The position numbers were made by a program, and so were the translations under genes. A stretch of 64,000 nt of DNA from an uncultured Gammaproteobacteria bacterium (GTDB taxonomy: Bacteria > Patescibacteriota > Patescibacteriia > UBA9934 > GWF2-40-263), in contig CAZIDX010000004.1 of NCBI GenBank assembly GCA_964538435.1, positions 769 to 64,768 of the forward strand, written 5' to 3'. Below, piece by piece: positions 8,742-55,696 of this stretch (its first letter is position 1; each line of letters starts with the position of its first letter). The notes beneath the pieces were generated by a model that was given only the letters and a program-made list of their open reading frames with translations, did no database searches and was not told the origin of the DNA.

Positions 8742-10064
8742 TTATCCTCCTGAGTCAGTACAGTATTTTAAGTAGATTTCAGCGGCTTTTGCTGCATAGT
8801 GAGCGGCTTGTGCTCCAGATCCGTTGTAGGCACACATGGCCATAGCAAGGTCGCCAGTTCGATCAAGTCGTTTTTTTACAAATGTTGCTTGAGCTCTGAG
8901 GGTGTTGCTAATACCTCCCCAGTTTGTTCCACCAGTTGAGAGTTTAGTGTCAAAGTACTCTGCACATGAGTCTAGTGCGACTTGGCAAGTCCAGCATACA
9001 GTGGTGTTACAATCTGGAAATTTTGTTGTGTCAGGCGGCCAGGTTGGGTCATAGGATTCATTGCAGTGCGCAGCAACTTGTTCTCCTCGTGTGTGGTCTC
9101 TGGACACTGTACGCACGCAACATTCTTGTCCAAGGGTTGATTCAAAAGATGTTGGCATGAACTGCGCAATCCCAATTTCCCCACATGGTCCACGCTGCGA
9201 GGAATCGTAGTCAATTGTTCCGCTTGTTTCAATCTGTAGATGAGTTGCAAGCTGGAAACGATCAGCTCCTGTTTCGTCTGCAATAGAGTTAACGACGGCG
9301 GTAAGCTCATCAGTCCAACCAGAAGGTTTTTTTAAAACAGTTGCAGAGCAGGCTTTGACCATCCCTTCGACTCCTTCACAGTTTTCAAGTGAGAATGATG
9401 TAAGCGCATCTTCTGCAATGTTGTCTAACGAGATTGTTCGAAGGCGGACAAGTTCGGGGTTCACTGTCCAAAGAATGAGCCAAGTGCTTGAAAGTAGGAT
9501 AAGGCCAATGACAGCGTTTTTGATGCGCTCCTTTGCTTTTGATGTATCTCCATATCCGCCAGCTGCAGCATACTGAAATCCTCCAATCATGACCATGACG
9601 ATTGCAGCAATGGTGGCTATTCCCAAAATGTACTTATAAGCTCCTGCGATGTAGGCACCCAAGAAGGCGATGTGCAGCACCTTACCATCGACCTCAATGG
9701 CATCTGACAGGTCTATGCCTGGGATTTCAACACTGAGGAGCGGGGTGATGGTTTGTGTGCTGTTGTTAGATACAGCTCCTGTGTTTCCAGGTGCGGTTGA
9801 GTAGCCAGAGTTTGTGCACGTTGTCTTACAATCCATGATGTGGCTTGTGCCATCTGGGCACGAGCAGCCAGCATCAGAGAGAATAGTGGCGCCGCTGTCT
9901 CCGCAGTCTGAAATACATTCGTCCGTTGCATCAACTGAGTGCGCAATATTATCTGAGTCATAACAAGTACAACCTCCAGCAGCAAGAGTGGTCAATGGGA
10001 AAAGGGCACTCAGTGTGAGTGTGGAAAGTGCTAGGAGGATTGAAATTCGTTTTGTTAGTTGCAT
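8742..10064 (-). CDS. Modular exported protein: signal peptide + Cys-rich domain + conserved membrane-hairpin module + lytic transglycosylase (SLT-like) domain
   Basis: Signal peptide; module '...IPGIDLSD...FLGAYIAGAYKYILGIATIAAIVMVMIGGFQYAAAGGYGDTSKAKERIKNAVIGLILLSSTWLILWTVNPELVRL'; SLT-like 'ETSGTIDYDSSQRGPCGEIGIAQFMPTSF'. Confidence 0.6.
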   Translation of the reverse strand: MQLTKRISILLALSTLTLSALFPLTTLAAGGCTCYDSDNIAHSVDATDECISDCGDSGATILSDAGCSCPDGTSHIMDCKTTCTNSGYSTAPGNTGAVSNNSTQTITPLLSVEIPGIDLSDAIEVDGKVLHIAFLGAYIAGAYKYILGIATIAAIVMVMIGGFQYAAAGGYGDTSKAKERIKNAVIGLILLSSTWLILWTVNPELVRLRTISLDNIAEDALTSFSLENCEGVEGMVKACSATVLKKPSGWTDELTAVVNSIADETGADRFQLATHLQIETSGTIDYDSSQRGPCGEIGIAQFMPTSFESTLGQECCVRTVSRDHTRGEQVAAHCNESYDPTWPPDTTKFPDCNTTVCWTCQVALDSCAEYFDTKLSTGGTNWGGISNTLRAQATFVKKRLDRTGDLAMAMCAYNGSGAQAAHYAAKAAEIYLKYCTDSGG

Positions 10065-11044
10065 GATCGAGACATTTTTGGATTTTCAAAATGCCAGGCT
10101 TCTGAGTCGAGCAGGCAAAAGCCCTGTGCTTTCATTGCTGAAATAAGAATGCTGTGCCCTGCATTTTTTCTGCATTTATCTACTGCAGGGTTGTTGTCGC
10201 ATTGTGCTTTTGTTACGCAGGGCGAGCCGCTGCATGTTGCCCACATATCGATAGCACGTCCAGTTGTGTGTGGACAGTTTTCTGCTTTTCCGTCTCGGAG
10301 CATGCAGGCGTAGGTAATCCCATCTTTTGGATCACATGTAGCAGAACCTGGTGGGTTGTTGCAGTATTTGAGAATCAGAGAAGTTTGTTTTTCAACGGTT
10401 CGAAAGCTTGAGGCAATGTAGATGCCATATCCTTGAGCATCTACTTGTGCTGCTGCCGCTTCAATCAAGGGAGCTAAGTCTTTTGGTACTTCATTCACTC
10501 CTGGACCTGTTATGTTTGCTGCAACAGGTGCTTGGAATTCAACTGCTACATTACCACCTGTAATGTTTTCTTCTGATCCAAGGGTTGCAAGGCTGATGTC
10601 GTCTACGACATCCACTTCAACAGGACCAAGGCGAACAAGTTCGGGGTTTACGGTCCAAAGTAGGAGATAGACAGATGCTAAGAGCACAAGACCTGTGATA
10701 GCGTCTTTTATTCTCTTCTTTGCTTTTGATGTTTCTCCATGTCCTCCAGCCAGCGCGTATTGAAGGCCGGCAATCATGATCATGACAATGGCAACAATAA
10801 CAGCTGCGTCAAGCAAGTAATCGTAGATGGCCGAGATGTAATCGGAAAGATAATTTACACTCATGACATTCCCTTTGATGCTGATTTCAGAAAGTTTGAG
10901 TCCGGGGATGTCTACGTTAAGAATAGGGGTCTGGGTTTTGACTGAGCTGGTGGTGGCGTGTGCAACAAGGGGGGAGACGAGAAAGAGTCCAGCGATGAGT
11001 TGGAGGAGGAGGCGTGCTGGTTTTGTGAGGAGAGTTTTTTTCAT
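10055..11044 (-). CDS. Modular exported protein: signal peptide + membrane-hairpin module + peptidase M15 (VanY/LAS-like) domain
   Basis: ORF 10055..11077, start MKKTLLTKP at 11044; shared module '...SDYISAIYDYLL...GLQYALAGGHGETSKAKKRIKDAITGLVLLASVYLLLWTVNPELVRL'; M15 motifs SSFRTVEKQ, HTTGRAIDMW, SEAWHFE. Confidence 0.6.
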   Translation of the reverse strand: MKKTLLTKPARLLLQLIAGLFLVSPLVAHATTSSVKTQTPILNVDIPGLKLSEISIKGNVMSVNYLSDYISAIYDYLLDAAVIVAIVMIMIAGLQYALAGGHGETSKAKKRIKDAITGLVLLASVYLLLWTVNPELVRLGPVEVDVVDDISLATLGSEENITGGNVAVEFQAPVAANITGPGVNEVPKDLAPLIEAAAAQVDAQGYGIYIASSFRTVEKQTSLILKYCNNPPGSATCDPKDGITYACMLRDGKAENCPHTTGRAIDMWATCSGSPCVTKAQCDNNPAVDKCRKNAGHSILISAMKAQGFCLLDSEAWHFENPKMSRSCN

Positions 11045-44252: not shown

Positions 44253-44966
44253 TTATCGCGAAAAGATTTGACTGATGAGCTCTGTTGCGCGCGCGCGAGA
44301 GTCATCAACGGTTCCTCCAGTATCGAGTAGATACACACGTGAACCTTTGTTTTTGAAAATAGAATGAAGCCACTTGGCAGCAAAGCGCTCCTCTTGTTTG
44401 AGCAGGAAGGCAAGTTCTGCGAACACACCTTTTGATTCATCGTCGCGAGCATGGATGCGTCTGTGAGCTTCCTGGGCATCAACTTTTGTGAGAATCAGGA
44501 CGTCTGGTGCGTGGTCGAGTGCGAGCTGGTTTCCAGGTAGGGACATGATGAATTCTTCTGTCATCCCTCCGTGCATGACGGGTTGGTAGACTAGCGAAGA
44601 GGAGATGCCTCTGTCTTGGATGACGATTTTTCCTGCTTTGAGCGCTGGGATAACAAGGCGCTTGTACATGATCTGTCGATCAAGAGCGAATGCGTGCGCG
44701 AGCTCTTCGCCTCCGTATGGATCGTCTGAGCGAGAGAGTTCGTAGCGGATGGCGCGACCTGTCCAGGTTCGGGTGGGTTCGTATGTGAAGAAGACGTCAT
44801 GATCTTGCAGGTCTTCAAATGCGGGTGGTTCGTGGTCGATCCAGTCAGAAAGTTTGAATACGTTGTGACCTTGCTCCTGTGTCCACTCTTGAACAGCATT
44901 AAGGACAGTGGATTTTCCACTTCCTGTCATGCCATCAACCATGATGAATTGACCTGATCGCTTCAT
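44253..44966 (-). CDS. Thymidylate kinase-like dNMP kinase
   Basis: P-loop VDGMTGSGKST; YEPTRTWTGRAIR; DRGISSSLVYQ (Tmk-like DRY/SS motif). Confidence 0.6.
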   Translation of the reverse strand: MKRSGQFIMVDGMTGSGKSTVLNAVQEWTQEQGHNVFKLSDWIDHEPPAFEDLQDHDVFFTYEPTRTWTGRAIRYELSRSDDPYGGEELAHAFALDRQIMYKRLVIPALKAGKIVIQDRGISSSLVYQPVMHGGMTEEFIMSLPGNQLALDHAPDVLILTKVDAQEAHRRIHARDDESKGVFAELAFLLKQEERFAAKWLHSIFKNKGSRVYLLDTGGTVDDSRARATELISQIFSR

Positions 44967-45117: not shown

Positions 45118-45951
45118 ATGACAAACTTTGATCAAATCTATTTAGACGCCATTGGGCGCATTTATAACGAGGGCGATGAAGTGTTTTCTGAGCGCACAGG
45201 ATACTCAACAAAGGCTATTCCGGGTCTTACGCTTGAGATTGAGCCTGCAAAGGGTTTTCCTCTGCTTACATTGCGCAAAATCCCTGTAAGATTGTTTTGT
45301 GCAGAGGTTGTGTGGATGGTAACTGGGCATAAACATCTTGAGTTCCTGCGTCAGTTTACAAAGGTTTGGGATGGGTTTGCAGAAGAAGATGGAACAGTGG
45401 AGGCAGCGTATGGTCACAGGTGGCGTCACTATTTTGGACGAGATCAGCTTTTGGATCTTGTGGATCATTTGCGCGCGGAGCCATCGTCTCGACATGGGGT
45501 TGTTGTGATGTGGGATCCTGCAACAGATGGGCTCACTGCGCCGAAGAAGAAAAATGTACCGTGTCCGTTTTGTTGGACAGCGAATATTATTCAAAATAAA
45601 TTGAATGTGCATTTGGTGATTCGATCAAATGACATGATGCTTGGAAATCCGCACGATACCGCTGGGTTCGCGCTCCTGCAGGCCATGCTTGCGCAGGAGC
45701 TTGGGGTCAATGTTGGGAAGCTTACGATTTCGATTTCGCATGCACATATTTATGAGAATCACTACTCTCAAGCTGTAGAACTTCTTGATCGAGATGATCA
45801 TTCTCATGACGAGATTTTTTGTAACTTGCCTGAGAATTCGTTTAGGCGAGCCATGGATGCTGATGAGACGCTTGTGAAGGAGATGTTTAAAATGTTTAAA
45901 AATCAGTATGAGCCTGCGCCTCCAGTGGAGCGCATGCAGATTGCGTATTAG
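45118..45951 (+). CDS. Thymidylate-synthase-family (ThyA-like) folate-dependent pyrimidine-C5 transferase with Asn->Asp specificity substitution (predicted dCMP- rather than dUMP-directed)
   Basis: Collinear with E. coli ThyA: ERTG (Arg21), PSSRHGVVVMWD, catalytic Cys in NVPCPF, IRSND, HAHIY; E. coli LGLPFN(177) aligns to LGNPHD. Confidence 0.75.
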   Translation: MTNFDQIYLDAIGRIYNEGDEVFSERTGYSTKAIPGLTLEIEPAKGFPLLTLRKIPVRLFCAEVVWMVTGHKHLEFLRQFTKVWDGFAEEDGTVEAAYGHRWRHYFGRDQLLDLVDHLRAEPSSRHGVVVMWDPATDGLTAPKKKNVPCPFCWTANIIQNKLNVHLVIRSNDMMLGNPHDTAGFALLQAMLAQELGVNVGKLTISISHAHIYENHYSQAVELLDRDDHSHDEIFCNLPENSFRRAMDADETLVKEMFKMFKNQYEPAPPVERMQIAY

Positions 45952-45953
45952 AT

Positions 45954-46454
45954 ATGGACGTTATACTTATTGCAGCGGTTTCGGCTGATGGAAAGATTGC
46001 TCAGTCCTCTGATCAGCTTTCTCTTGATTGGACAAGCAAAGAGGATTTGCGGTTTTTTGTTGAAAAAACTAAGGAAATTGGTGTGGTGATCATGGGGCGA
46101 AAGACCTTTGATACGATTGGAAAGCCGCTTAAAGACAGGCAGCTCATAGTGATGACACGCTCACCAGAGGAGCAGGAGACAATGGAAGGGGTGGAGTTTA
46201 CAAGCGAGACACCGCATGAGATTTTGGAGCGATTGGAGGGGCTTGGGCTAAAGAGTGTTGTGCTGGCTGGTGGGTCATCGATTTACAGCAAGTTTTTGTA
46301 TGACAATCTTGTGACAGATGTTTATCTGACGATTGAACCAATCTTGTTTGGTCAGGGTGTGCCACTTGCCTTTGGATTTGATCGAATTGATATGGAGCTT
46401 GAGGATGTGAGCGAGCTGGGGGAGAATGGAATTCTTGCGCATTACACGTTGTAG
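45954..46454 (+). CDS. folA: Dihydrofolate reductase
   Basis: VILIAAVSADGKIA...VVIMGRKTFDTIGKPLKDRQLIVMTRS matches DHFR fold motifs; translationally coupled to thyA-like gene. Confidence 0.7.
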   Translation: MDVILIAAVSADGKIAQSSDQLSLDWTSKEDLRFFVEKTKEIGVVIMGRKTFDTIGKPLKDRQLIVMTRSPEEQETMEGVEFTSETPHEILERLEGLGLKSVVLAGGSSIYSKFLYDNLVTDVYLTIEPILFGQGVPLAFGFDRIDMELEDVSELGENGILAHYTL

Positions 46455-46500: not shown

Positions 46501-49500
46501 TTATTCTTCAGATGGTGGTGGGGCAAGGTCTTTTGGTAGCTCATAGCCCCCAAAGACGCGTTGGACCATTCCTTCTGCAATATCTGTGTTGAAACGGACG
46601 CGCTCGGCAAGTTTTGCATACTCTGGAGTGTTCTGGAGTCCTTCCTCTGCCATGTTCTCGAGTACGCCCCGCTGCTCAAGGGCATAGACCATTTGACGCA
46701 TAACGCGTTCTCCCTGCGTGTTCCAATCGTTGTCGTAGCCTTTGTCTCGGAAGGCTTCGTAGAGCTGGTCCTTTGGCACACCGAACTCGTTTGCAGCATC
46801 TGTCATTTCTGATTTGTTTGCGAAGAAGCCGATGATGCGTGCGGCTGTAACTTCACCTTCATCGTTATAACGGAAACGGATTTTGTTTTCATCTCCCACA
46901 AACTTTTTAAGAGCTTCGGATGATCCTCCCTGTGGTGATTCAGGGGTTGGTGGTGCTTCAACTGGTGGGGGAGGAGTTGGTTGCGGACCTGCTTTTAGGT
47001 TTTGTTGCAGAGTGTCAGGTTTTTCTGGAGCTCCTGCGCTCGCTGTTGAATTCATGTTTTCAGATAGGTTTGCCGATGCTACCACAATGTCGGCGTCAGC
47101 CATGGCTTGCTGCACAATTGGATTTCCTGCGTCAAGGTATCTTCCGTATTCTGCAAGTTCTTGTGCGATTTGTTGTTTGAGAGCCAGAGCTTCACCAGAG
47201 CCACCTTCTCCAACACCCTCTAGCGCACGTAGGGCCTTTTGCATGACAAAGATCTTTGTTGCGCTGTCTTGGATTTGACTTGAGCTTTCAAGAACACTTG
47301 CTTCTGTAGCTTCTTCCCATCCTTCAACAAGAAGACCTTGAGCACTTTCCACAACAGAAGGTTGTGGGTTTTCTAGTAGCGCTTGGAAGTTTTCAATGTG
47401 TGGTCGTCCTGATGCGTCCAGTGTGAAAGAAACTTCACCAACTCCTTCAACGTTTAAGGATTCGATTGGTGGGATTGCATCAGCTTCAGGGTCGAAGTGA
47501 ACAATTTTATCGTAGTGTGTGAAGAATCCTTTGAGTTCTTGGATTGTTTCGCTTTGCTCATCAATGATTCCAAATTGTTTTAACGCATAATAGTGCATTT
47601 CTGCAGTTGAGATTGTTTCCATTGCTTCGGCAGTTTCTAGCAGGTTGTTTTCTTGCAGTGTTTCCAGTAATTGGTGATATCCAGCGAGGTACTCGGCATT
47701 GTGCTGGAAGATTTCAGTGTACTGTCCTGCTAATTCTTGGTGCATTTCAAGCAAGTGCTGAGTTCCTCCATACATTGCTTCGACTTGAGCAAGTTCCTCT
47801 GCAGAGAGTTCGACGTTATCAAGAGCAAGTCCTTCGACAATATCGGTTGAGTCAGATGCGTATTCAAAGTTGATTGAAGATCCGTCTTCTAGGTCGACTG
47901 TTCCGACACCGGTCCCACCTGGGGCTTCGCGTGGGATTTGGGCGATAAGCTGTTCGGTTGGGTTTGGTGGGTTGCCGTGTTCGTAGATAAATCCTTCAGC
48001 GCGAAGTTCGTCCATGCTGAGTACATCTGGTGTATCGGAGCTGATATCAACAAAACCGATATCAAGACCACCTTCGGTTGCGGTTGCAACTACGGATAGA
48101 TTTCCAATGGCTTCTGTGGCTAATCGGGTGTCACCTCCAGTGCGGACAAGTCCTTCTGCACGTGCTGCTGTGAGAGCTTGCTGGTTTGCCCAAGCGTCCA
48201 CATCACCCTCGCCTGAGAATCCAAAACCTTCTGGGTTCGCTTTGAGTTGGGAGGTGATGAGTCCGATGATGCTGTTGTGCTCGGAATCTGCTGCAACGGT
48301 TCCCATTTGGAGTTTTTCAAGATTAAGGCTTGAGCCTTCTGCCGCGTCTGGAGCAACTGTTGCTTCTGTGTTTGTCTCAGGGGAGGCAGGGGTTGCTTCT
48401 TTTGTAATCGCAGCTTCAGTTTCGGGTGCTGGCTCTGCTTCGGTTGGTGCCCCTGTTTCTGTTGCTGCTTCTGCACTGTCTGTGATTTCAGCTTCAGAGT
48501 CGCTTGAGAACAGATCGTTAAACCGCGTGAAGTTTTCAGCTAGGTTGCTCTTGATGGCTTCTGTTGCTCCAAGTTCTTGGAATTTGTCTATTGATTCAGA
48601 AAGGGAGCTTAAAACACCTTCATCCATTGCTTCGGCTCCAGCCAGGAATCCAAGACCAGTGGCTGTGGCAATGGTTCCGAGGGCCTGTGCTCGGTTCATT
48701 GTGCGCTTCAACCCTGTGTCAGCGTTGTCTCCGTATTTGAGTTTTTCGTAGGTCTCTTGAGCGCCGAATACGAACATTTCATTGAAGTAGCTATCTGTTC
48801 GTTTTCCTTCTTCCATTTCAGCAGTGACCTTTTTATGCCTTTCGTAATATTTGAAACCAGCAAGAACACCCACTCGAGCGATGTTGAGGCCAGACATTGC
48901 TAGCATCGAGTTTATGGTTTGCTTGAGAACCTCTGTGTTCTTGATGCGATTATCAATGGCTGTCTGCAGCGCTTCGTCCATTTCTGCGCGCATATTTTCA
49001 CCAGCATCATCGACTTTCTCCCCATAGGTTTCAATAATTTCGTCCAGCTTGGCTTTCATTTCAGCTTTTTTTTCTGGTGTAAGGTGCTTTGATGATTCAA
49101 TCGCTTGAGCAAGAGCGGCTTTTTTCTGTTCAACAGGATTTGGTTTTTCGCCATCCTCTTCAATAACTTCTTGCGCTTTTTCTATTGCATCGAGGATTCG
49201 ATTACGTTCTTTTTTGGTGAAGATTTTTTGAGAAATATATTTTGGGACGTCAACAAAGCCTTTGAGACCGAAAATATGCAAAGGCACAGCCATACCAACC
49301 CCTCCCACAGATAAAACAGCGTCTGTCACTGTTTCTTCAGCGGTTTCTTTTTCTTCCTGTTTTACTTCACCTGTTGCTTCTCTTCGGATGCGTTTTCCAA
49401 TCGCTCGTGCAACGTTCATGAGCTTGTCTCGTGTGCTGGCAGGTGTTTCTTCTGATGGTTCTTCTGCTGGTTGCTCGCCTTCAGGCGAAGGTTCACCCTC

Positions 49501-49617
49501 AGGCGCTGGTTCTGCTTCAGGTTCTGGAGCAGGTTCAGGTTGGTCTTTTTTGGGTTCGGTTGGCGGATCTTGGGCATTCAATTGATCCATGATGTCGTTT
49601 GCTAGTGGATCACTCAT
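46501..49617 (-). CDS. Hypothetical large (1038 aa) acidic low-complexity protein
   Basis: PE/EA-rich N-terminus, one hydrophobic segment, long acidic helical regions. Confidence 0.5.
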   Translation of the reverse strand: MSDPLANDIMDQLNAQDPPTEPKKDQPEPAPEPEAEPAPEGEPSPEGEQPAEEPSEETPASTRDKLMNVARAIGKRIRREATGEVKQEEKETAEETVTDAVLSVGGVGMAVPLHIFGLKGFVDVPKYISQKIFTKKERNRILDAIEKAQEVIEEDGEKPNPVEQKKAALAQAIESSKHLTPEKKAEMKAKLDEIIETYGEKVDDAGENMRAEMDEALQTAIDNRIKNTEVLKQTINSMLAMSGLNIARVGVLAGFKYYERHKKVTAEMEEGKRTDSYFNEMFVFGAQETYEKLKYGDNADTGLKRTMNRAQALGTIATATGLGFLAGAEAMDEGVLSSLSESIDKFQELGATEAIKSNLAENFTRFNDLFSSDSEAEITDSAEAATETGAPTEAEPAPETEAAITKEATPASPETNTEATVAPDAAEGSSLNLEKLQMGTVAADSEHNSIIGLITSQLKANPEGFGFSGEGDVDAWANQQALTAARAEGLVRTGGDTRLATEAIGNLSVVATATEGGLDIGFVDISSDTPDVLSMDELRAEGFIYEHGNPPNPTEQLIAQIPREAPGGTGVGTVDLEDGSSINFEYASDSTDIVEGLALDNVELSAEELAQVEAMYGGTQHLLEMHQELAGQYTEIFQHNAEYLAGYHQLLETLQENNLLETAEAMETISTAEMHYYALKQFGIIDEQSETIQELKGFFTHYDKIVHFDPEADAIPPIESLNVEGVGEVSFTLDASGRPHIENFQALLENPQPSVVESAQGLLVEGWEEATEASVLESSSQIQDSATKIFVMQKALRALEGVGEGGSGEALALKQQIAQELAEYGRYLDAGNPIVQQAMADADIVVASANLSENMNSTASAGAPEKPDTLQQNLKAGPQPTPPPPVEAPPTPESPQGGSSEALKKFVGDENKIRFRYNDEGEVTAARIIGFFANKSEMTDAANEFGVPKDQLYEAFRDKGYDNDWNTQGERVMRQMVYALEQRGVLENMAEEGLQNTPEYAKLAERVRFNTDIAEGMVQRVFGGYELPKDLAPPPSEE

Positions 49618-49934
49618 AGAGTTTCGATAAATTCACGAACTTTATTGATTTGTTCGTTTCTTGTGATTTGATCTGCAAGTTGCAGAGATTGTTTTTGCAT
49701 ATCATGTGCAGCTTCTTTTTCTTGAGCTTCAACTTTTTTTGCAATGTCATCAAAACGTTCAAGAAGTGCAGCAACAATAGCTTGGTCAGCTTCATGCCAA
49801 GCAGCAACAAGTTCACCAAGGTCTTTCTCCAGCTTTGGGTCGTCACTGAGAGAGAGGAGATCAATAATCATGAGTTTTGTCTCACGGTCCAATGAGCCGT
49901 GTTGCAGGGCATCCAGGAGCTTTTGTCTGTTCAT
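49614..49934 (-). CDS. Small acidic coiled-coil protein
   Basis: ORF overlapping start of 46501..49617 by 4 bp (operon). Confidence 0.4.
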   Translation of the reverse strand: MNRQKLLDALQHGSLDRETKLMIIDLLSLSDDPKLEKDLGELVAAWHEADQAIVAALLERFDDIAKKVEAQEKEAAHDMQKQSLQLADQITRNEQINKVREFIETL

Positions 49935-49937
49935 AGA

Positions 49938-50336
49938 TTAGCTCTCCTCAGCTTTTTTAAGGATGTTTTCAATTTCTTCCATTTCAGAAAGAGCCTGCTT
50001 TTCAATCTCTTTGCGTTGTTCTTGGTACTTTGTTTTGACACGTTCGAGTGTTTCAACAAATTCCTGTGTTTCAATTTGAGTTGCGTCAGCAATGTTTGCC
50101 TCGAGCATGGTAGCGAGCTTGTCTATGAGTTCTGGGGTCATGTCAGGCAGAAGTGCCATGTAGGCATCTTTTACGTCGTCTGGGAGCGATGAGGCAGCCA
50201 TGAGCCAGGCTAGGCGTTCACCTAGTTGTTTTGCCTCCTTTTCAATTTCTTGCTCATTGTTTGTTTGGTCTGTCATACGAAAATATGCTAACTTTGATTC
50301 ACGATATTCATAGTATAGCGTATTTATGCCAGACAT
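49938..50336 (-). CDS. Small acidic coiled-coil protein
   Basis: ORF; first gene of the three-gene minus operon. Confidence 0.4.
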   Translation of the reverse strand: MSGINTLYYEYRESKLAYFRMTDQTNNEQEIEKEAKQLGERLAWLMAASSLPDDVKDAYMALLPDMTPELIDKLATMLEANIADATQIETQEFVETLERVKTKYQEQRKEIEKQALSEMEEIENILKKAEES

Positions 50337-51237
50337 TCAGTATCCATATTTACCAGAGGGTAAGACTATTAAGTACACCAGTGCTGACGATCCTTTCATG
50401 ATCGAGGCATCTAAGGTTCGAGATGGTCAAGCGGGTGATACGTTTTTTCCTGTGGGGAGTGTTCTTGTGAAAGATGGGGAGGTTATTGGTCGAGGAGGGA
50501 ATGGGTTTAACAAGGGGCCAGGGCAGCTTCATATTTGTCCTCGGATTGTTATGGATTGTAAGAGTGGAGAAGGGTATGATTTGTGCACGTTTCATGATTC
50601 TCCTGGGCACAGTGAAGCTATGGCTGTGCAGGATGCAATTCATAACGGGAAGGATCCTAGTGGAGCAGATATTTATATGCATGGGCATTGGTGGGCATGT
50701 GAGCCGTGTTGGACGCAGTTTTTGGAAGCTGGAGGGAATGATATTTATGTGCTTGATGATGCGCACGAGCAGTTTACAAAAGAAAAGATGTATGAGAAGG
50801 CCATGACTACGAGTTTGAAGAGTGCTTATGTTGCAGGAGGAATTACGAACATTGAAGATTTTGATGCCAAGGCAAAGTTTTATGAAGAGATTGGAGGTGT
50901 GTGTGATGAGCTTGGGATTGTTTCAAGGATTCCGCATCGAGATAATGCACTCAATGAAGATCGAGATAAGGGGAATTCGCGTGGGGTGTATGATTGGGCG
51001 ACAAAAGAGGCTCAAGACAATTGTGTAACGATTGCTGAGGTGAGTGATCCTTCGCTTGGGACCGGGGGAGAGATTGTGCATGCTGAGCTCTCGGGAAAGC
51101 CGGTTGTGTTGTATTCAAAGAAAGGGGCGAAGGTGTCAAGGTATGTGCTTGGGAATCCGGCGGTTGTGTATCATGTTGAGTATGAGGATTTAGACGATGC
51201 TAAGCGGCAACTTCGGAATGTGCTTCGGTTGATGTAA
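50326..51237 (+). CDS. Fusion protein: dCMP/CMP deaminase zinc-binding domain + DNPH1/Rcl-like 2'-deoxynucleoside-5'-phosphate N-hydrolase (nucleoside deoxyribosyltransferase fold)
   Basis: HSEAMAV (H-x-E) and ACEPCW (C-x-x-C) deaminase motifs; C-terminal AYVAGGI ... DPSLGTGGEIVHAELSGKPVVLY resembles DNPH1 'PSLGVGYELG'. Confidence 0.7.
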   Translation: MPDIQYPYLPEGKTIKYTSADDPFMIEASKVRDGQAGDTFFPVGSVLVKDGEVIGRGGNGFNKGPGQLHICPRIVMDCKSGEGYDLCTFHDSPGHSEAMAVQDAIHNGKDPSGADIYMHGHWWACEPCWTQFLEAGGNDIYVLDDAHEQFTKEKMYEKAMTTSLKSAYVAGGITNIEDFDAKAKFYEEIGGVCDELGIVSRIPHRDNALNEDRDKGNSRGVYDWATKEAQDNCVTIAEVSDPSLGTGGEIVHAELSGKPVVLYSKKGAKVSRYVLGNPAVVYHVEYEDLDDAKRQLRNVLRLM

Positions 51238-51310: not shown

Positions 51311-51515
51311 AATTGGTTTCGCCTTCGCTCGAACCTTGCTCGGATCTTGCTGCGGGGGTTTGGGGCGGCCACGAGGTCGTAGGTTAAAAACTCGCAGTAA
51401 ATGTTTTTAAACTACGACCTCGAATGGCCGTTTGGCGTCCTGGGCCTATAGGTGGGGTGGTGGGGCTCTGCGACGTGTCGGCACGTCGAGTGCCTCACGT
51501 CGCCATTTCCACGGG
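51311..51515 (+). repeat. Family-1 structured interspersed repeat, copy 3 (hairpins 51370-51422 and 51470-51503), preceded by CT-rich tract 51283-51308
   Basis: Alignment with copies 1 and 2. Confidence 0.7.
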
Positions 51516-51592
51516 GGATTCGGTTGTGTAAACAAAGAAGCACCCGGAGACGAGCTGCGGGTGCAACTTGTCTCGCGGGTGCGAGAGGGGGG

Positions 51593-51668
51593 TGGGGCCG
51601 GCTGCGGGACTCGAACCCGGAATCTGCTGATTACAAATCAGCTGCTCTACCAATTGAGCTAAGCCGGC
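51593..51668 (-). tRNA. tRNA-Thr (anticodon UGU)
   Basis: RC gives GCCGGCT acceptor, D-arm GCTCAATTGGTAGAGC, anticodon stem GCTGA/TCAGC loop TTTGTAA, T-arm CCGGGTTCGAGTCCCGG, CCA; hairpin+U-run downstream on minus. Confidence 0.85.
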
Positions 51669-51683
51669 TGAGTCGTCTTGAGG

Positions 51684-53198
51684 CTACCTCACATCCTTCA
51701 TGATGGGGGTGAAGTAGACAGCCACGACCCGGGGGGTCAGGTAGTGCCCGTCGACTCGGTACAGGACCAGGTCACCCTCGGAGGGGAAGTACCGGTGGTG
51801 TCCGCGCGCCTGCACCATCTTGAGGTGGCCGTGATGGACCAGCATCTGGGTGCCGCCCTTGGGGTGGCGACCTTGCTCGATCGTGCCGTACCAGTAGCCA
51901 GCTTGGTCGAGCCGGTACTCGAGGCTGTCCTCGAGCTGGGGGTGGCTCAGGCCCAAGCGCCTCCAGGCGATGAATGCCGTGGAGATGGTGTTTTCCGTGA
52001 GGGTCGGGGCGACCACTTCGCGGAAGAAGGCTTCACCTTCGCCCTCCAGATCTACCACGAGGCGGAGCAGGAATGAGAACGTGTGCCGTGTCGCGTAGTG
52101 AGGAGTGTGGGCCAGGTCCAGGCGCTTGGCCAGGGCCTTGCGAGTTCTTGCGTCCAGGCGCTTGAGCTCATCCTCGGGGATGCGGTCGAGGCTCTCGAGT
52201 CCCAGGATGGCCTGGGCGATGTGGGCGTCCACGGCCGCGCTGGGCAGTCGACGCTCCATCTGGACCCGTGCACCCATGAGCTTGTTCGGTGCCTTGGATC
52301 CGCAGATGGCCAGGGCGATGGACAGCTCCTGGTTGGTGAGCATGTCCCAGGGCTTGAAGTCGCCGAAGCAGTAGTGCCACTTCTCGGTCTCGGTGTACTT
52401 GCGCAGGTTCATGGTGAACGGCTCGTTCTGATGCGTGTAGCCGTCACCAGCCTTGAGCGAGGTCAGGCATGCGAGTACTTCCTGGTGGATCAGGTCGAAC
52501 CCGTGGGTGGGATCGGACAGGATGCGGTTGTAGAGGTCGCTTCCGCGGCTGACTGCGATTCCGAGGGAGTGCAGGGTGCTGCGGATGGGGGCGCTGTGGC
52601 GGTCGCCGATGCCGTACTCGATGAAGTCGTGCACATCGTTGGCCATGCCATGCCGAACCTGGGTGCGGCGCAGGCGCTCGATGATGGCCTGGGCGATCAC
52701 CTGACGGGTGACACCAGCCATGATGGCAGCATTGATCCAGCCGTTGTTCCACGAGCCGAAGCGCGGGTACAGCTCGTGGATGAACCGCTCGCGCCACTGG
52801 GGCGAGAGCAGGGTCAGGAGCTCTGCGGACTGGATGAAGCCCTGGAAGAACCAGTGCGGTAGGGACAGGAGCGGGGACTCGAAGTCCGTCTGCGCGGCCT
52901 TCTGCTCGCATGCGGTGTCGTACGCGTGCAGTGCGGCCTGCATGAACAGGTCTGCGTCCCCCACGATTTCGGTGAACTTGGTCGGGTTGGCCATGATCCA
53001 GGGCATGCCTGCAGACTGCGGGATCACTTCGTATCCACAGTCATCGACCAGGAGTGCGAAGCTGAGCATGTCCTCGGGCTTGGCCGTGCCGTCTTCGATC
53101 TTCGCCAGGATGGCGTCACGGGCTGCGTTCAGGCGGTCGTAGGACTCGCCGCGGCCACTGATCCACTGGTGGGTCACGTTCTGGGTCTCGATCTGCAT
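51684..53198 (-). CDS. Hypothetical protein (504 aa from RBS-supported start), first gene of GC-rich island
   Basis: ORF 51684..53276; ATG at 53198 preceded by GGAGGA; ~60% GC by eye. Confidence 0.5.
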   Translation of the reverse strand: MQIETQNVTHQWISGRGESYDRLNAARDAILAKIEDGTAKPEDMLSFALLVDDCGYEVIPQSAGMPWIMANPTKFTEIVGDADLFMQAALHAYDTACEQKAAQTDFESPLLSLPHWFFQGFIQSAELLTLLSPQWRERFIHELYPRFGSWNNGWINAAIMAGVTRQVIAQAIIERLRRTQVRHGMANDVHDFIEYGIGDRHSAPIRSTLHSLGIAVSRGSDLYNRILSDPTHGFDLIHQEVLACLTSLKAGDGYTHQNEPFTMNLRKYTETEKWHYCFGDFKPWDMLTNQELSIALAICGSKAPNKLMGARVQMERRLPSAAVDAHIAQAILGLESLDRIPEDELKRLDARTRKALAKRLDLAHTPHYATRHTFSFLLRLVVDLEGEGEAFFREVVAPTLTENTISTAFIAWRRLGLSHPQLEDSLEYRLDQAGYWYGTIEQGRHPKGGTQMLVHHGHLKMVQARGHHRYFPSEGDLVLYRVDGHYLTPRVVAVYFTPIMKDVR

Positions 53199-53330
53199 TT
53201 GTCTTCCTCCGATCGGGTGTCTTTCTTTGACATTGCCGAGTGAGGTCTTTCTGGGAACCGCCCAGAACGGAGCCAAAAGGCTTGTAGGAATGAAAGGAGC
53301 ATGCGCACATTTGTTGTGCGCGAACGGAGA

Positions 53331-53452: not shown

Positions 53453-53477
53453 GAAAAGATCCGCTTTGTTGCGGATC
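53453..53477 (-). terminator. Terminator (gatccgc-tttgtt-gcggatc; U-run on minus) overlapping stop of CDS 53477..54322
   Basis: 7-bp stem; A-run 53454-53457 on plus. Confidence 0.45.
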
Positions 53478-54322
53478 TAGAGGCTCAGGCCGGGTTTGGT
53501 TGAGCATTCGTAGAGAAAGCCTTCGTAGGCCTGGTTGACGAGTTGTATCCAGCCGCCATCGCGGGGGATGCGGCTGAGGTCTGGCATTGGATTTGTTTTT
53601 ACACGTCGAGGGCGTACGTGGGTGTGTGCGACGATTTGGAGTCGGAGTTTGTCCGGTCTTTGAGGGTCGCGATCCATGATGCGAGCTGTGATCAGCAGAA
53701 GTCTCATCTCAACGCCGATGACCGCACCTTCTGGTCCGTAGACTTCGGTGGCGGCGTAGATTGCTCCGTGTGCGGCTTTGGTTGAGTAGAGTCGCTTGCT
53801 TGGAGCGAAGTTGCCATGCTCGTCCTGGTTGATGATTGCGATCGGGTCCAGGGGACTGGTGTTTCGTTTGCACCAGACCGCGTAGCAGTCGCGCAGACCG
53901 TTGTTGAACGAGTCTGGGAGTTGTAGCTCGCGTTCGTCTGTGGTGCGGTGTCGCCTGTTGTACTGCCGGCGTCCGCTGCTCAGGATCGAGACAAGATAGG
54001 CTTTTGCACGCTCTCGCTCGGCTTTCTCACAAATGTGATGCCAAGCGAGTCTGTCTGCTGAGCGCATGGAAGCAATGCCATGCTGGAGCAGGTTCGTGCT
54101 TGTAGAGTTTTTCCACTGGCCCGGGATCGTGACATAGTGCCGGTCACGTCCCATTTTAGGTTGAATCAGCTCAGCCGAGGGGGTCTTGGTTGTCTGACAC
54201 AGTTCAAGATGTTTGCGTGCAGCAGCTTCGGAGTCGAATCCGAGTGCGGGTGTGATCAGGGACGTTGTGTCCTGTGTGCTCATCAGTCCAGGAAAAGGCG
54301 CAGTCATTGCATCCTCGTACAT
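53477..54322 (-). CDS. Hypothetical protein (281 aa), GC-rich island
   Basis: ORF; own promoter and terminator. Confidence 0.5.
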   Translation of the reverse strand: MYEDAMTAPFPGLMSTQDTTSLITPALGFDSEAAARKHLELCQTTKTPSAELIQPKMGRDRHYVTIPGQWKNSTSTNLLQHGIASMRSADRLAWHHICEKAERERAKAYLVSILSSGRRQYNRRHRTTDERELQLPDSFNNGLRDCYAVWCKRNTSPLDPIAIINQDEHGNFAPSKRLYSTKAAHGAIYAATEVYGPEGAVIGVEMRLLLITARIMDRDPQRPDKLRLQIVAHTHVRPRRVKTNPMPDLSRIPRDGGWIQLVNQAYEGFLYECSTKPGLSL

Positions 54323-54404: not shown

Positions 54405-55061
54405 TTAGATTTTGAACTGATCTTTAAGATCGGTTAGTTTTCCGCTGATGAGCAGCTCGCGCTCGTCGTCTTTGTCTAGTTTGAACGACGGAGAGCCTGA
54501 GTCTGTGTATTTGGCTGCGCTCATGCCGTGAAGGTTGGCCTCTTCTGGAGTGAGGGATTCGTTCAGCTCTTGGAAGATTACCTGGCAGACGCGCTCGCCT
54601 GGATAGATACGGATGACTTGATCGCCTGCTTCGTTTTTCATTGGGAAGATCAGGTGTCCTTTGTAGCCTGTGTCAATGATTCCTGAGAGTGAAAGGTTGA
54701 TTCCGCGGCGGTTTGTGCTGGTGCGAGGAAAGAGGATGGCCATGAGGTTCATGGCGTTGATCTCGATGCGCTCAAGGCTGGTTGCGATTACGAACTCGTT
54801 AGGGAGAAGGTCAAAGTATTGGCCAGGTTGGAGTTGGACTTCGTCGAATTGTTCGCGGTGTGCGTCAACATCGTCGATGGCTACGTTGATAGCTCGTCGT
54901 CCTTTTTCATCCACTGTCCAGTTGCGGGGGATGAGGAACTTGTAGCCGAGGCGTAGGTCAAGGGCGTGTGGTTGGATTTGAAACTTGTCGAGTTCTGGCT
55001 CAAAGACAAGGTCTTTGTCCTCGATGGATTTGATGATTTGTGATCGTGTAAGTATTCCCAT
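54405..55061 (-). CDS. dCTP deaminase / dUTPase-superfamily protein (Dcd-like) with C-terminal extension
   Basis: N-terminal ILTRSQIIKSIEDKDLVFEP...IQPHALDLRLG; RTSTNRRG; SGIIDTGYKGHLIFPMKN...PGERVCQVIF; the Dcd catalytic Glu position appears to be Pro (alignment by eye). Confidence 0.65.
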   Translation of the reverse strand: MGILTRSQIIKSIEDKDLVFEPELDKFQIQPHALDLRLGYKFLIPRNWTVDEKGRRAINVAIDDVDAHREQFDEVQLQPGQYFDLLPNEFVIATSLERIEINAMNLMAILFPRTSTNRRGINLSLSGIIDTGYKGHLIFPMKNEAGDQVIRIYPGERVCQVIFQELNESLTPEEANLHGMSAAKYTDSGSPSFKLDKDDERELLISGKLTDLKDQFKI

Positions 55062-55119: not shown

Positions 55120-55671
55120 CTAGCGTGGGGTGACCATGTCTTGGAGTTGCCAGAGGCAAGTATCTCGCAGTGCGTAGTCTTCGTCTGTGAGGGAGCCGCG
55201 ATGCCACTTAGCCAGAGCCAGCCAGCACTTCATGGCGTCGCTGGCGCGATTGCATCGAAGTGCCAGGTAAGTGGCCATGCGCAGTGTCCCTTTAGGAAAT
55301 CGAGTGCGAGTTGCAACTGGAGGGATCTTTTCGACCACCTCCCAGGCAGCATTGTCTCGTCCGAGGATTACGAGTGCCCAGGCGCCGTGGGCGTAGCGGT
55401 TGAGGATATTTTCGCCGTAGAAGCAGAACGGCGCTCCGTCAAGGATGCGACTTGCTAGGACAGCGTTAGGATTCTCGTCGCAGAGCCAGATTCGAGGGAG
55501 ATCAGCAAGGGATTCTGGTGATGGCTTCATGCCCTGAAGAGCCAGGGCAAGGATGCCATCGATCTTTTCTGGTTGATCGAAGACGAGAGTTTCGTTGATC
55601 CAGCTGCGCGGGGGCGGCTTTGTGACGTCCATGGCGTTGGGGTATTGCTTTGGTTCGTTTGTGACTACCAC
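55120..55671 (-). CDS. Hypothetical protein, GC-rich island
   Basis: ORF 55120..55683 (TTG); GTG at 55671 with GGGAGGA RBS. Confidence 0.4.
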   Translation of the reverse strand: MVVTNEPKQYPNAMDVTKPPPRSWINETLVFDQPEKIDGILALALQGMKPSPESLADLPRIWLCDENPNAVLASRILDGAPFCFYGENILNRYAHGAWALVILGRDNAAWEVVEKIPPVATRTRFPKGTLRMATYLALRCNRASDAMKCWLALAKWHRGSLTDEDYALRDTCLWQLQDMVTPR

Positions 55672-55696
55672 GTTTCCTCCCAAATGGCTTCAGTGG

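Follow-up and report, generated by a model that had tools for sequence, protein, structure and literature searches.

A deaminase fused to a DNPH1-like domain in Patescibacteria and its predicted place in thymidylate synthesis

RESULTS

A dCMP-type deaminase joined to a DNPH1-like domain

We here describe a gene encoding a protein of 303 amino acids, in which a zinc deaminase domain of the dCMP-deaminase type is followed by a domain resembling the nucleotide hydrolase DNPH1. The gene was found in a 64 000-nt stretch of DNA (hereafter called the window; positions 769 to 64 768 of contig CAZIDX010000004.1, assembly GCA_964538435.1) that belongs to the Patescibacteriota by GTDB lineage and, as judged from its genes and nearest relatives, to Candidatus Uhrbacteria. 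The open reading frame (ORF), taken from the ORF list and its translation, lies on the plus strand and runs from ATG to stop (50326..51237). Sequence comparisons confirmed that the fusion is real and conserved. With regards to its function, we give about even chances to the reading that it is the two-domain enzyme of a Patescibacteria-specific module for thymidylate synthesis, which would proceed from dCTP through dCMP and 5-methyl-dCMP to dTMP, with the C-terminal domain removing off-pathway pyrimidine deoxynucleoside monophosphates (dNMPs). The fusion flags a probable non-canonical and lineage-wide thymidylate pathway.

The two-domain architecture had been proposed in a first-pass annotation made from the letters of the sequence, and it held when analyzed with Pfam, with a profile of the family, with hhalign and with Foldseek. 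Pfam placed the N-terminal half above the gathering score of its family and the C-terminal half below that of its own, with the family profile and hhalign supporting the relation of the latter to DNPH1. The motifs quoted in that annotation could all be located in the translation, with HSEAMAV at residues 95–101, ACEPCW at 124–129, AYVAGGI at 167–173 and DPSLGTGGEIVHAELSGKPVV at 241–261. An AlphaFold2 model of the complete fusion protein had a pLDDT of 91.8 and a pTM of 0.83. The same annotation knew of no earlier account of such a fusion, and our literature searches likewise found no description of a deaminase::DNPH1-like fusion, including DrHyd together with a deaminase.

The N-terminal deaminase domain

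The deaminase domain comprises residues 1–160 (50326..50805, plus strand, as for all features of the fusion gene given below). Family PF00383 (cytidine/deoxycytidylate deaminase) matched residues 21–128 with 32.9 bits (E 6.4e-8; gathering score 25), and it also matched every one of the 52 aligned homologues. The catalytic zinc ligand and the proton-shuttle Glu are found in His95-Ser-Glu97 (50608..50616), and the two cysteine zinc ligands in Cys125-Glu-Pro-Cys128 (50698..50709), inside the longer motif GHWWACEPCW. The codons of both motifs were verified and both motifs were invariant in the 52 homologues, hence the loss of zinc ligands, which the first-pass annotation had named as an observation that would speak against its proposal, was not seen. 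Ahead of the H-x-E motif there is a Cys/His-rich insert (50530..50595) with His69, Cys71, Cys87 and His90, again invariant in all 52 homologues, that in a sequence alignment matched the corresponding insert of the Streptococcus mutans dCMP deaminase (2hvv). These four residues would probably form a second, structural zinc site.

When a profile built from the 52 homologues was compared with solved structures, the best deaminase match was the S. mutans dCMP deaminase 2hvv (E 2.1e-7, residues 19–140), with the dCMP deaminases of cyanophage S-TIM5, human (DCTD) and phage T4 found more weakly (E 6.9e-4 to 0.012). Fragments of RibD and TadA ranked between 2hvv and these other dCMP deaminases (RibD 2hxv at 8.6e-6), with only partial coverage of the domain. 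By sequence as well as by fold, the closest solved relatives of the N-terminal half were dCMP deaminases, rather than tRNA, cytosine or guanine deaminases. The protein is nonetheless not an orthologue of ComEB as judged by the NCBIfam equivalog TIGR02571, which gave 18.8 bits against a cut-off of 219.45, and its sequence sets it apart as a subfamily of its own, marked by HICPRIV and GHWWACEPCW. Compared with the known dCMP deaminases (2hvv, ComEB, human DCTD and T4 Cd), it shares the H-x-E and C-x-x-C zinc site and the Cys/His-rich insert, but it has this subfamily signature of its own, carries an extra C-terminal domain and always adjoins a ThyA homologue of the type described below, having Asp in place of the Asn of ordinary thymidylate synthases.

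The C-terminal DNPH1-like domain

Residues 161–303 (50806..51234) make up a domain related to the nucleoside-5'-monophosphate N-glycosidases of the DNPH1/MilB type. Family PF05014 (Nuc_deoxyrib_tr) scored 18.3 bits on the window protein, below its gathering score of 28.8 (E 0.0026), and was matched at E ≤ 0.01 by 45 of the 52 aligned homologues, with 2.7e-10 as the best E. The family profile gave E 1.1e-7 with rat DNPH1/Rcl, about 4e-7 with human DNPH1, 5.6e-6 with BcmB, 4.8e-5 with BlsM and 3.2e-4 with MilB, and only 0.02 with nucleoside deoxyribosyltransferases (NDTs). Alignment of the domain with human DNPH1 using hhalign had a probability of 97.3% and E 1.8e-11, and a Foldseek search with the predicted model returned MilB, DNPH1, BcmB and NDTs. 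An unrelated Rossmann-like domain of the LOG/YjeF type, which had been named as an identity that would overturn the original assignment, was ruled out by these profile and structure-level matches, with the C-terminal half being closest to DNPH1/MilB/NDT. A nucleoside deoxyribosyltransferase proper was also ruled out, both by the presence of two phosphate-binding serines and by the profile ranks (0.02 versus 1e-7). The latter means that the match to NDT/PDT enzymes of PF05014 was five orders of magnitude weaker than that to DNPH1, and while those enzymes are nucleoside transferases, the two phosphate serines of the window protein are typical of nucleotide hydrolases.

We subsequently assigned individual residues by alignment with DNPH1, whose residue roles (Tyr24, His56, Ser98, Glu104, Asp80 and others) have been described (PMC10603095). 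In the hhalign alignment Tyr168 (50827..50829) corresponds to Tyr24 of the catalytic triad, being of the deoxyribose type and found as Tyr in 89 of 95 fusion homologues, and His204 (50935..50937) to His56, which contacts the O2 of the base and is His in 84 of the 95. The HMMER alignment was offset in the loop holding His204. The stretch from Ser243, matching the phosphate-binding Ser98, to Glu249, matching the covalent nucleophile Glu104, lies within the motif PSLGTGGE (51052..51072; hhalign). Glu249 was invariant in the 52-sequence alignment and present in 96 of 97 members of the wider family, where Ser243 was found in 95. A further phosphate serine, contributed in the DNPH1 dimer by the partner subunit (Ser117 in rat, Ser128 in human), was matched by Ser271 (51136..51138) in both HMMER and hhalign, and was Ser in 79 of 98 sequences.

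Three other residues of DNPH1 were replaced. The general acid, Asp80 in human and Asp69 in rat, corresponds in both HMMER and hhalign to Ala225 (50998..51000), while hhalign placed Pro203 at the position of Glu55, which activates water, and Thr174 at that of Arg30, which recognizes O4 of the base through water. Among fusion proteins, Asp was found at the Asp80 position in 32 of 99, compared with 110 of 144 stand-alone relatives (135–160 amino acids in length, obtained from an exhaustive representative search and confirmed as PF05014). The conservation of the catalytic Glu and Tyr, proposed as a check of the original assignment, thus stood for Glu249 and Tyr168 but did not extend to the third residue of the triad.

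The conservation of both Ser243 and Ser271 indicates that the ligand would be a nucleoside 5'-monophosphate, and the presence of Tyr168 where MilB has Phe indicates a deoxyribonucleotide. With the general-acid Asp missing, a hydrolase would probably be slow or use another acid, for which Asp206 in a PHRD motif is a possible candidate only. Human DNPH1 with the substitution D80A keeps a measurable turnover (PMC12751057), so the case for an activity of the domain is weakened by loss of the Asp but still stands. Since not all features of the DNPH1 triad are present, we place the domain in the PF05014 superfamily as DNPH1-like, rather than calling it an orthologue of DNPH1.

The neighbouring ThyA homologue has the residue of cytosine-specific enzymes

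The first-pass annotation had pointed to a nearby ThyA homologue as a probable dCMP C5-modifying enzyme, and the determinant of the dCMP type was indeed present. This gene (45118..45951, plus strand; PF00303, 180 bits) encodes Asp180 (codon 45655–45657) at the position of Asn177 in Escherichia coli ThyA and Pro150 (codon 45565–45567) at that of His147, as found when it was aligned by HMMER with E. coli ThyA and with thymidylate synthases of solved structure. It retains the nucleophile Cys149 as well as Ser170 and Arg125 of the deoxyribo type. In thymidylate synthase homologues, Asn at position 177 is found where the substrate base is uracil and Asp where it is cytosine (PMC5175136, PMC8670742), and the Ser and Arg mark deoxyribo-specific enzymes (PMC5175136). 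Positions N177 and H147 are the two that set cytosine-modifying apart from uracil-methylating enzymes. Once this Asn is exchanged for Asp, thymidylate synthase becomes a methylase of dCMP (Liu & Santi 1992, Hardy & Nalivaika 1992, Graves et al. 1992, as cited in PMC8670742).

The Asp was found in all of the 120 closest homologues of this ThyA and in 70 of the 70 ThyA genes located within 10 kb of a member of the deaminase family, although every one in both sets is annotated as 'thymidylate synthase'. The latter set included a second ThyA lineage (locus L001) that was only 31% identical to the first. By its sequence, the ThyA homologue is thereby not an ordinary thymidylate synthase, and we predict that it is a dCMP methylase. 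At its C-terminus the residues line up with E. coli ThyA, and a conserved dihydrofolate reductase (DHFR) gene follows immediately downstream. Translational coupling to DHFR would argue for a reductive methyl transfer, in which dihydrofolate is made, rather than a hydroxymethyl transfer.

Operon structure and gene fusions link the deaminase to thymidylate synthesis

The DHFR gene of the window (45954..46454, plus strand; PF00186, 70.8 bits) starts 3 nt downstream of the ThyA homologue. A dTMP kinase gene (44253..44966, minus strand; TIGR00041, 89.8 bits with a cut-off of 83.25) is divergent from the ThyA homologue, in a position that was conserved in relatives. Searching related genomes for the fusion next to thyA-like genes, as had been suggested, we found a conserved operon of an Asp-type thyA, folA and the fusion gene. 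In loci L001 and L006 these three followed each other in that order with 4-nt overlaps. When counting the loci that have both the C-terminal domain and a co-directional DHFR gene, the latter was located no more than 150 nt upstream of the fusion gene in 24 out of 39, and in nine of the 39, the window included (46501–50336), an insertion of 1.5–5 kb separated the two. In the window, the interrupting segment holds, on the minus strand, a gene for an acidic low-complexity protein of 1038 amino acids and two small ORFs (106 and 132 amino acids). In 22 of 70 related loci we saw a similar insertion above 1 kb (1.1–5.6 kb), and the small ORFs recur in L004 and L005.

A few kb downstream of the fusion gene there is a gene for a protein similar to dCTP deaminases (DCD-like), followed by the genes for L1, L11, NusG and SecE. 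The DCD-like protein (54405..55061, minus strand; PF22769, 95.8 bits) passed the cut-off of TIGR02274, but in alignments to 4xjc and 2qxx its Pro140 (codon 54642–54644) stood where dCTP deaminases carry their catalytic Glu. This Glu was found in none of 13 aligned DCD-like homologues (11 having Pro, one Ser and one a gap), and each of the 60 sequences of the locus table that matched by motif had Pro in its place. Judging from this exchange, the protein is probably a diphosphatase of dCTP (or dUTP) rather than a deaminase.

The same gene products were also found joined in single polypeptides, as a DHFR::deaminase::DNPH1-like triple fusion of 481 amino acids in L003 (8001–9446) and as a DCD-like::deaminase::DNPH1-like ORF of 544 amino acids in L074 (897–2531). 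Together with the Asp-type thyA-folA-fusion operon, these fusions point to a biosynthetic role of the deaminase in conversion of 5-methyl-dCMP to dTMP. The original proposal had favoured a salvage or sanitising path for 5-hydroxymethyl-dCMP, which as a main role is less likely given the conserved biosynthetic operon and the fusions. It had offered the step from 5-methyl-dCMP to dTMP as a second option, and it is that part which we now favour for the deaminase, although not as the 'regulator' of such a flux that was then envisaged.

In locus L089, from another lineage of Patescibacteria, a co-directional operon encodes a deaminase, a DCD-like protein, ThyA, DHFR, a DNPH1-like protein, two kinases and a Tmk::dUTPase fusion (9730–10869, 379 amino acids). 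The DNPH1-like protein is here encoded by a stand-alone gene (P0390; 8001–8483, 160 amino acids) and has the catalytic Asp. The presence of an unfused DNPH1-like gene in a thymidylate operon shows that the link between DNPH1-like proteins and thymidylate synthesis is independent of the fusion. The ThyA of this locus has the canonical Asn and its deaminase is of the ordinary ComEB type, lacking GHWWACEPCW, which constitutes a natural control in which the two features co-vary. It also shows that DNPH1-like proteins of Patescibacteria are tied to dTMP synthesis whichever type of ThyA is present. A manual alignment to E. coli Dcd placed Gly at the Glu position of its DCD-like protein.

Distribution of the family and decay of the C-terminal domain

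About 100 full-length homologues of the fusion were found, with 43–100% identity and with database names including 'hypothetical protein', 'deaminase', 'deoxycytidylate deaminase' and '2'-deoxynucleoside 5'-phosphate N-hydrolase'. A scan in which each GTDB species was represented by a single genome gave 80 loci, nearly all of them from Uhrbacteria, with the few remaining from Moraniibacteriota, Falkow-, Taylor- and Adlerbacteria. Many of the records for metagenome-assembled genomes bearing the module (L016, L018, L019, L021, L024, L025 and others) are titled 'uncultured Gammaproteobacteria bacterium', which is probably a placeholder or a mislabel. An anti-phage defence system was considered and rejected, with PADLOC giving no match for the fusion or for ThyA and only a chance-level match for the DCD-like protein. 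A phage origin of the fusion was rejected likewise, on the basis of no PHROG match and only two weak matches to the N-terminal domain in IMG/VR, where the fusion family was almost absent from the viral contigs.

The C-terminal domain was present in 43 of 82 non-redundant loci and was degenerate or truncated in the other 39. Orthologues of 236 amino acids, encoded at the same chromosomal position, have kept nothing of this domain but its first strand and, at the other end, the final strand with the helix, and in the intermediate forms P0095, P0100 and P0120 the PSLG-G-E motif is degenerate. As judged from these sequences, the domain is ancestral to a clade and has been eroded repeatedly. An exhaustive search gave about 280 relatives of the C-terminal domain at E ≤ 0.001, and most of the 150 among the matches listed were stand-alone proteins of 135–160 amino acids. 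Using a word-indexed homologue search with the C-terminal domain alone, we obtained two matches, one of which was the P0390 protein of L089.

DISCUSSION

A proposed route to thymidylate

The known route to thymidylate in cells starts from dUMP and uses either ThyA or ThyX. In the route that we propose for the module, the DCD-like protein without the deaminase Glu would convert dCTP to dCMP, whereupon the Asp-type ThyA, in line with the substrate switch established by mutagenesis, would methylate dCMP with methylene-tetrahydrofolate to yield 5-methyl-dCMP and dihydrofolate, with the co-transcribed DHFR recycling the latter. The N-terminal deaminase domain would next convert 5-methyl-dCMP to dTMP, from which the adjacent dTMP kinase would make dTDP. 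Methylation would in this order of steps precede deamination, thereby bypassing dUMP. The last and least certain step concerns the C-terminal domain, which may bind a 2'-deoxynucleoside 5'-monophosphate in the manner of DNPH1, through its two serines, Tyr and His, and cut the N-glycosidic bond by way of a covalent intermediate between Glu249 and deoxyribose-5-phosphate. As a built-in clean-up, it would remove off-pathway pyrimidine dNMPs that are useless to the module. Candidate substrates are dUMP, which could arise when the deaminase acts on dCMP and would be unusable by an Asp-type ThyA, and 5-hydroxymethyl-dUMP, the compound brought up in the first-pass annotation, which could form by a ThyA-type side reaction followed by deamination.

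Several observations weigh against this proposal. The window protein, with its Ala225, and roughly two in three of the fusions lack the general acid of DNPH1, and the equivalents of Glu55 and Arg30 are also absent. In 39 of the 82 loci, about half of the orthologues, the whole domain is either degenerate or deleted, which makes it a dispensable accessory rather than central to the system. In L089 the DNPH1-like gene accompanies an Asn-type ThyA, so the DNPH1-like role is not specific to 5-methyl-dCMP chemistry, and a hydrolase of dUMP would in that organism compete with ThyA. L001 also carries a classical dUTPase, showing that dUTP is not absent from these cells. For the deaminase itself, the phage enzyme mSCD-B5 acts on triphosphates and not on monophosphates (bioRxiv 10.1101/2024.12.05.627091), which puts the assumed monophosphate level of its substrate in doubt. 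The absence of the Asp, the repeated decay of the domain and the Asn-type ThyA of L089 together keep the role of the C-terminal domain uncertain, with a regulatory role being the main rival.

A bolder version of the proposal, which we regard as tentative and somewhat less probable than its opposite, is that a thymidylate synthase dependent on dUMP is lacking in Uhrbacteria and their relatives among the Patescibacteria, which would instead use a third cellular route to dTMP, one so far known in phages only, going from dCTP through dCMP and 5-methyl-dCMP by means of the Asp-type ThyA, DHFR, a specialised 5-methyl-dCMP deaminase, the Glu-less DCD-like dCTPase and the fused DNPH1-like domain as a sanitiser of the nucleotide pool. 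In its extreme form, 5-methyl-dCTP would also enter the DNA. A scan for ThyX motifs, limited to 1.33 Mb of sampled loci, gave chance matches only, such as one in a membrane protein.

Alternative explanations

An unlikely, but of the alternatives the most serious, possibility is that the C-terminal domain has ceased to be catalytic and has become a nucleotide-binding module for regulation or oligomerisation, sensing a dNMP (dTMP or dUMP, for instance) and tuning the deaminase, the role of which would be unchanged. Such a module would replace the allostery by dCTP and dTTP of classical dCMP deaminases. Loss of the general-acid Asp in 67 of 99 fusion proteins, as compared with 34 of 144 stand-alone relatives, agrees with this, as does the graded decay through P0095, P0100, P0120 and the 236-residue forms, which suggests that a structural contact with the deaminase was retained, and in the predicted model the pTM of 0.83 would indicate a fixed packing of the two domains. 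The retention of Glu249 (96 of 97), Tyr168, His204 and the phosphate serines is nevertheless more than the binding of a ligand usually needs, and human DNPH1 D80A retains measurable rates (PMC12751057). We consider it less probable still that the arrangement is a conventional one, with an ordinary dCMP deaminase supplying dUMP to an ordinary thymidylate synthase and the C-terminal domain being a general enzyme of deoxynucleotide or deoxynucleoside salvage or catabolism that was fused by chance. The database names 'deoxycytidylate deaminase' and 'thymidylate synthase', the dUTPase of L001 and the DNPH1-like gene in the canonical operon of L089 with its Asn-type ThyA would all fit with such a view, but it has to contend with an Asp at N177 in 70 of 70 neighbouring and 120 of 120 homologous ThyA sequences, this exchange being the experimentally established switch to dCMP. 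It must also account for a deaminase of a distinct subfamily (HICPRIV, GHWWACEPCW) that scores 18.8 against 219 bits for ComEB, and for Ser243 and Ser271, which indicate a ligand with a 5'-phosphate and not a nucleoside.

Two further explanations were considered. One is a phage-like hypermodification of DNA in a cell, in which 5-methyl-dCMP would be phosphorylated and replace dCTP in replication, with dCTP excluded by the DCD-like dCTPase, and the fusion would make dTMP from part of the 5-methyl-dC pool and hydrolyse unwanted dCMP or dUMP. The gene set (a dCTPase-like protein, Asp-type thymidylate synthase, dCMP-family deaminase and dNMP kinase) does mirror that of phages with fully substituted cytosine, and in metaviromes the pairing of an Asp-type thymidylate synthase with a deaminase marks DNA with modified cytosine (bioRxiv 10.1101/2024.12.05.627091). 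No sign of base modification was seen in the sequence, though, and the housekeeping surroundings (L1/L11/NusG/SecE, GatB) in very small genomes, the near absence of the family from viral contigs and the finding of no report of 5mC-substituted DNA in Patescibacteria in our literature searches make this explanation highly improbable in our view. The other, to which we attach hardly any probability, is a pair similar to MilA/MilB or BcmA/BcmB, where the ThyA-like enzyme would modify C5 of a cytidylate and the N-glycosidase domain would free 5-methylcytosine or thymine for a metabolite or cofactor. It is made unlikely by Tyr168, which is of the deoxyribose type and is Phe in MilB, by the Ser and Arg of deoxyribo-specific enzymes in the ThyA, by DHFR and dTMP kinase belonging to the module, by the C-terminal domain being dispensable in half of the lineages, and by the streamlined genomes, with no secondary-metabolite genes at the loci examined.

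Relation to known systems and possible significance

Human DNPH1 acts downstream of the dCMP deaminase DCTD. The window protein shares with human and rat DNPH1/Rcl the PSLG-G-E motif with its nucleophile Glu and the equivalents of Tyr24, Ser98 and the trans-dimer Ser128, as well as, in hhalign, that of His56, but differs by Ala225 for Asp80, Pro for Glu55 and Thr for Arg30, by a PF05014 score below gathering, by its fusion with a deaminase and by its place in a thymidylate operon of bacteria. With MilB, BcmB and BlsM the likeness lies in the pairing of a nucleotide N-glycosidase with a cytosine-specific, Asp-type ThyA homologue (MilA/BcmA; PMC5175136). Those enzymes are N-glycosidases of CMP or hydroxymethyl-CMP, thus acting on ribonucleotides, that have Phe for Tyr and Glu62 for His56 and supply free bases for antibiotics (PMC10603095), whereas the residues of the window protein are of the deoxy type and the partner ThyA is coupled to DHFR, consistent with methyl and not hydroxymethyl transfer, and to dTMP kinase.

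The closest parallel to the proposed pathway comes from phage metagenomes, in which genes of the dCMP-deaminase family co-localise with thymidylate synthase homologues having Asp at N177. Five of seven such phage synthases made 5-methyl-dCMP, and the phage deaminases were selective for 5-methyl-dC nucleotides and were proposed to provide dT nucleotides in the same way as in phage XP12 (bioRxiv 10.1101/2024.12.05.627091). The XP12-type pathway (mSCD) and the module described here have in common the Asp-N177 ThyA homologue beside a PF00383 deaminase, together with the proposed bypass of dUMP. The phage genes are viral, serve DNA hypermodification and have no reported DHFR, DCD-like or DNPH1-like partner, in contrast to the Patescibacteria module that is chromosomal, syntenic and of housekeeping character. 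Our literature searches found no cellular route to dTMP by a dCMP methylase and nothing relevant on Uhrbacteria and thymidylate. By comparison with these systems, what appears to be new is the three-way association of deaminase, DNPH1-like domain and Asp-type ThyA in streamlined cellular genomes, as well as the fusion itself, with a pathway logic that resembles that of XP12.

Should the proposal be true, a lineage that methylates dCMP before deaminating it would represent a new housekeeping pathway in a large bacterial lineage, the annotation of 'thymidylate synthase' and 'dCMP deaminase' genes in Patescibacteria would change, and the question would arise how these cells exclude 5-methyl-dC and dU nucleotides from their DNA. 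If the ThyA homologue uses dUMP after all, the finding shrinks to an uncharacterised but ordinary domain fusion. The fusion pairs a deaminase of the dCMP family with a bacterial relative of DNPH1, which in humans is a drug target, and the natural variation of the catalytic Asp within the family offers a simple experimental system for the coupling between deamination and sanitation of the nucleotide pool. The family may possibly also be a source of new 5-methylcytosine-selective deaminases for sequencing technology.

Further observations on the window

The window has a G+C content of 47.8%, with a block at 62–65% G+C (51500–53300) directly beside a gene for tRNA-Thr(TGT) (51593–51668, minus strand). 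This block, which is possibly a horizontally acquired island, contains an ORF of 530 amino acids (51684–53276, minus strand) that had no Pfam or PHROG match, and the ORFs at 53477–54322 and 55120–55683 (both on the minus strand) were also orphans. At the equivalent position L001 encodes, instead of the orphan ORF, a cytidylate-kinase-like protein of 531 amino acids.

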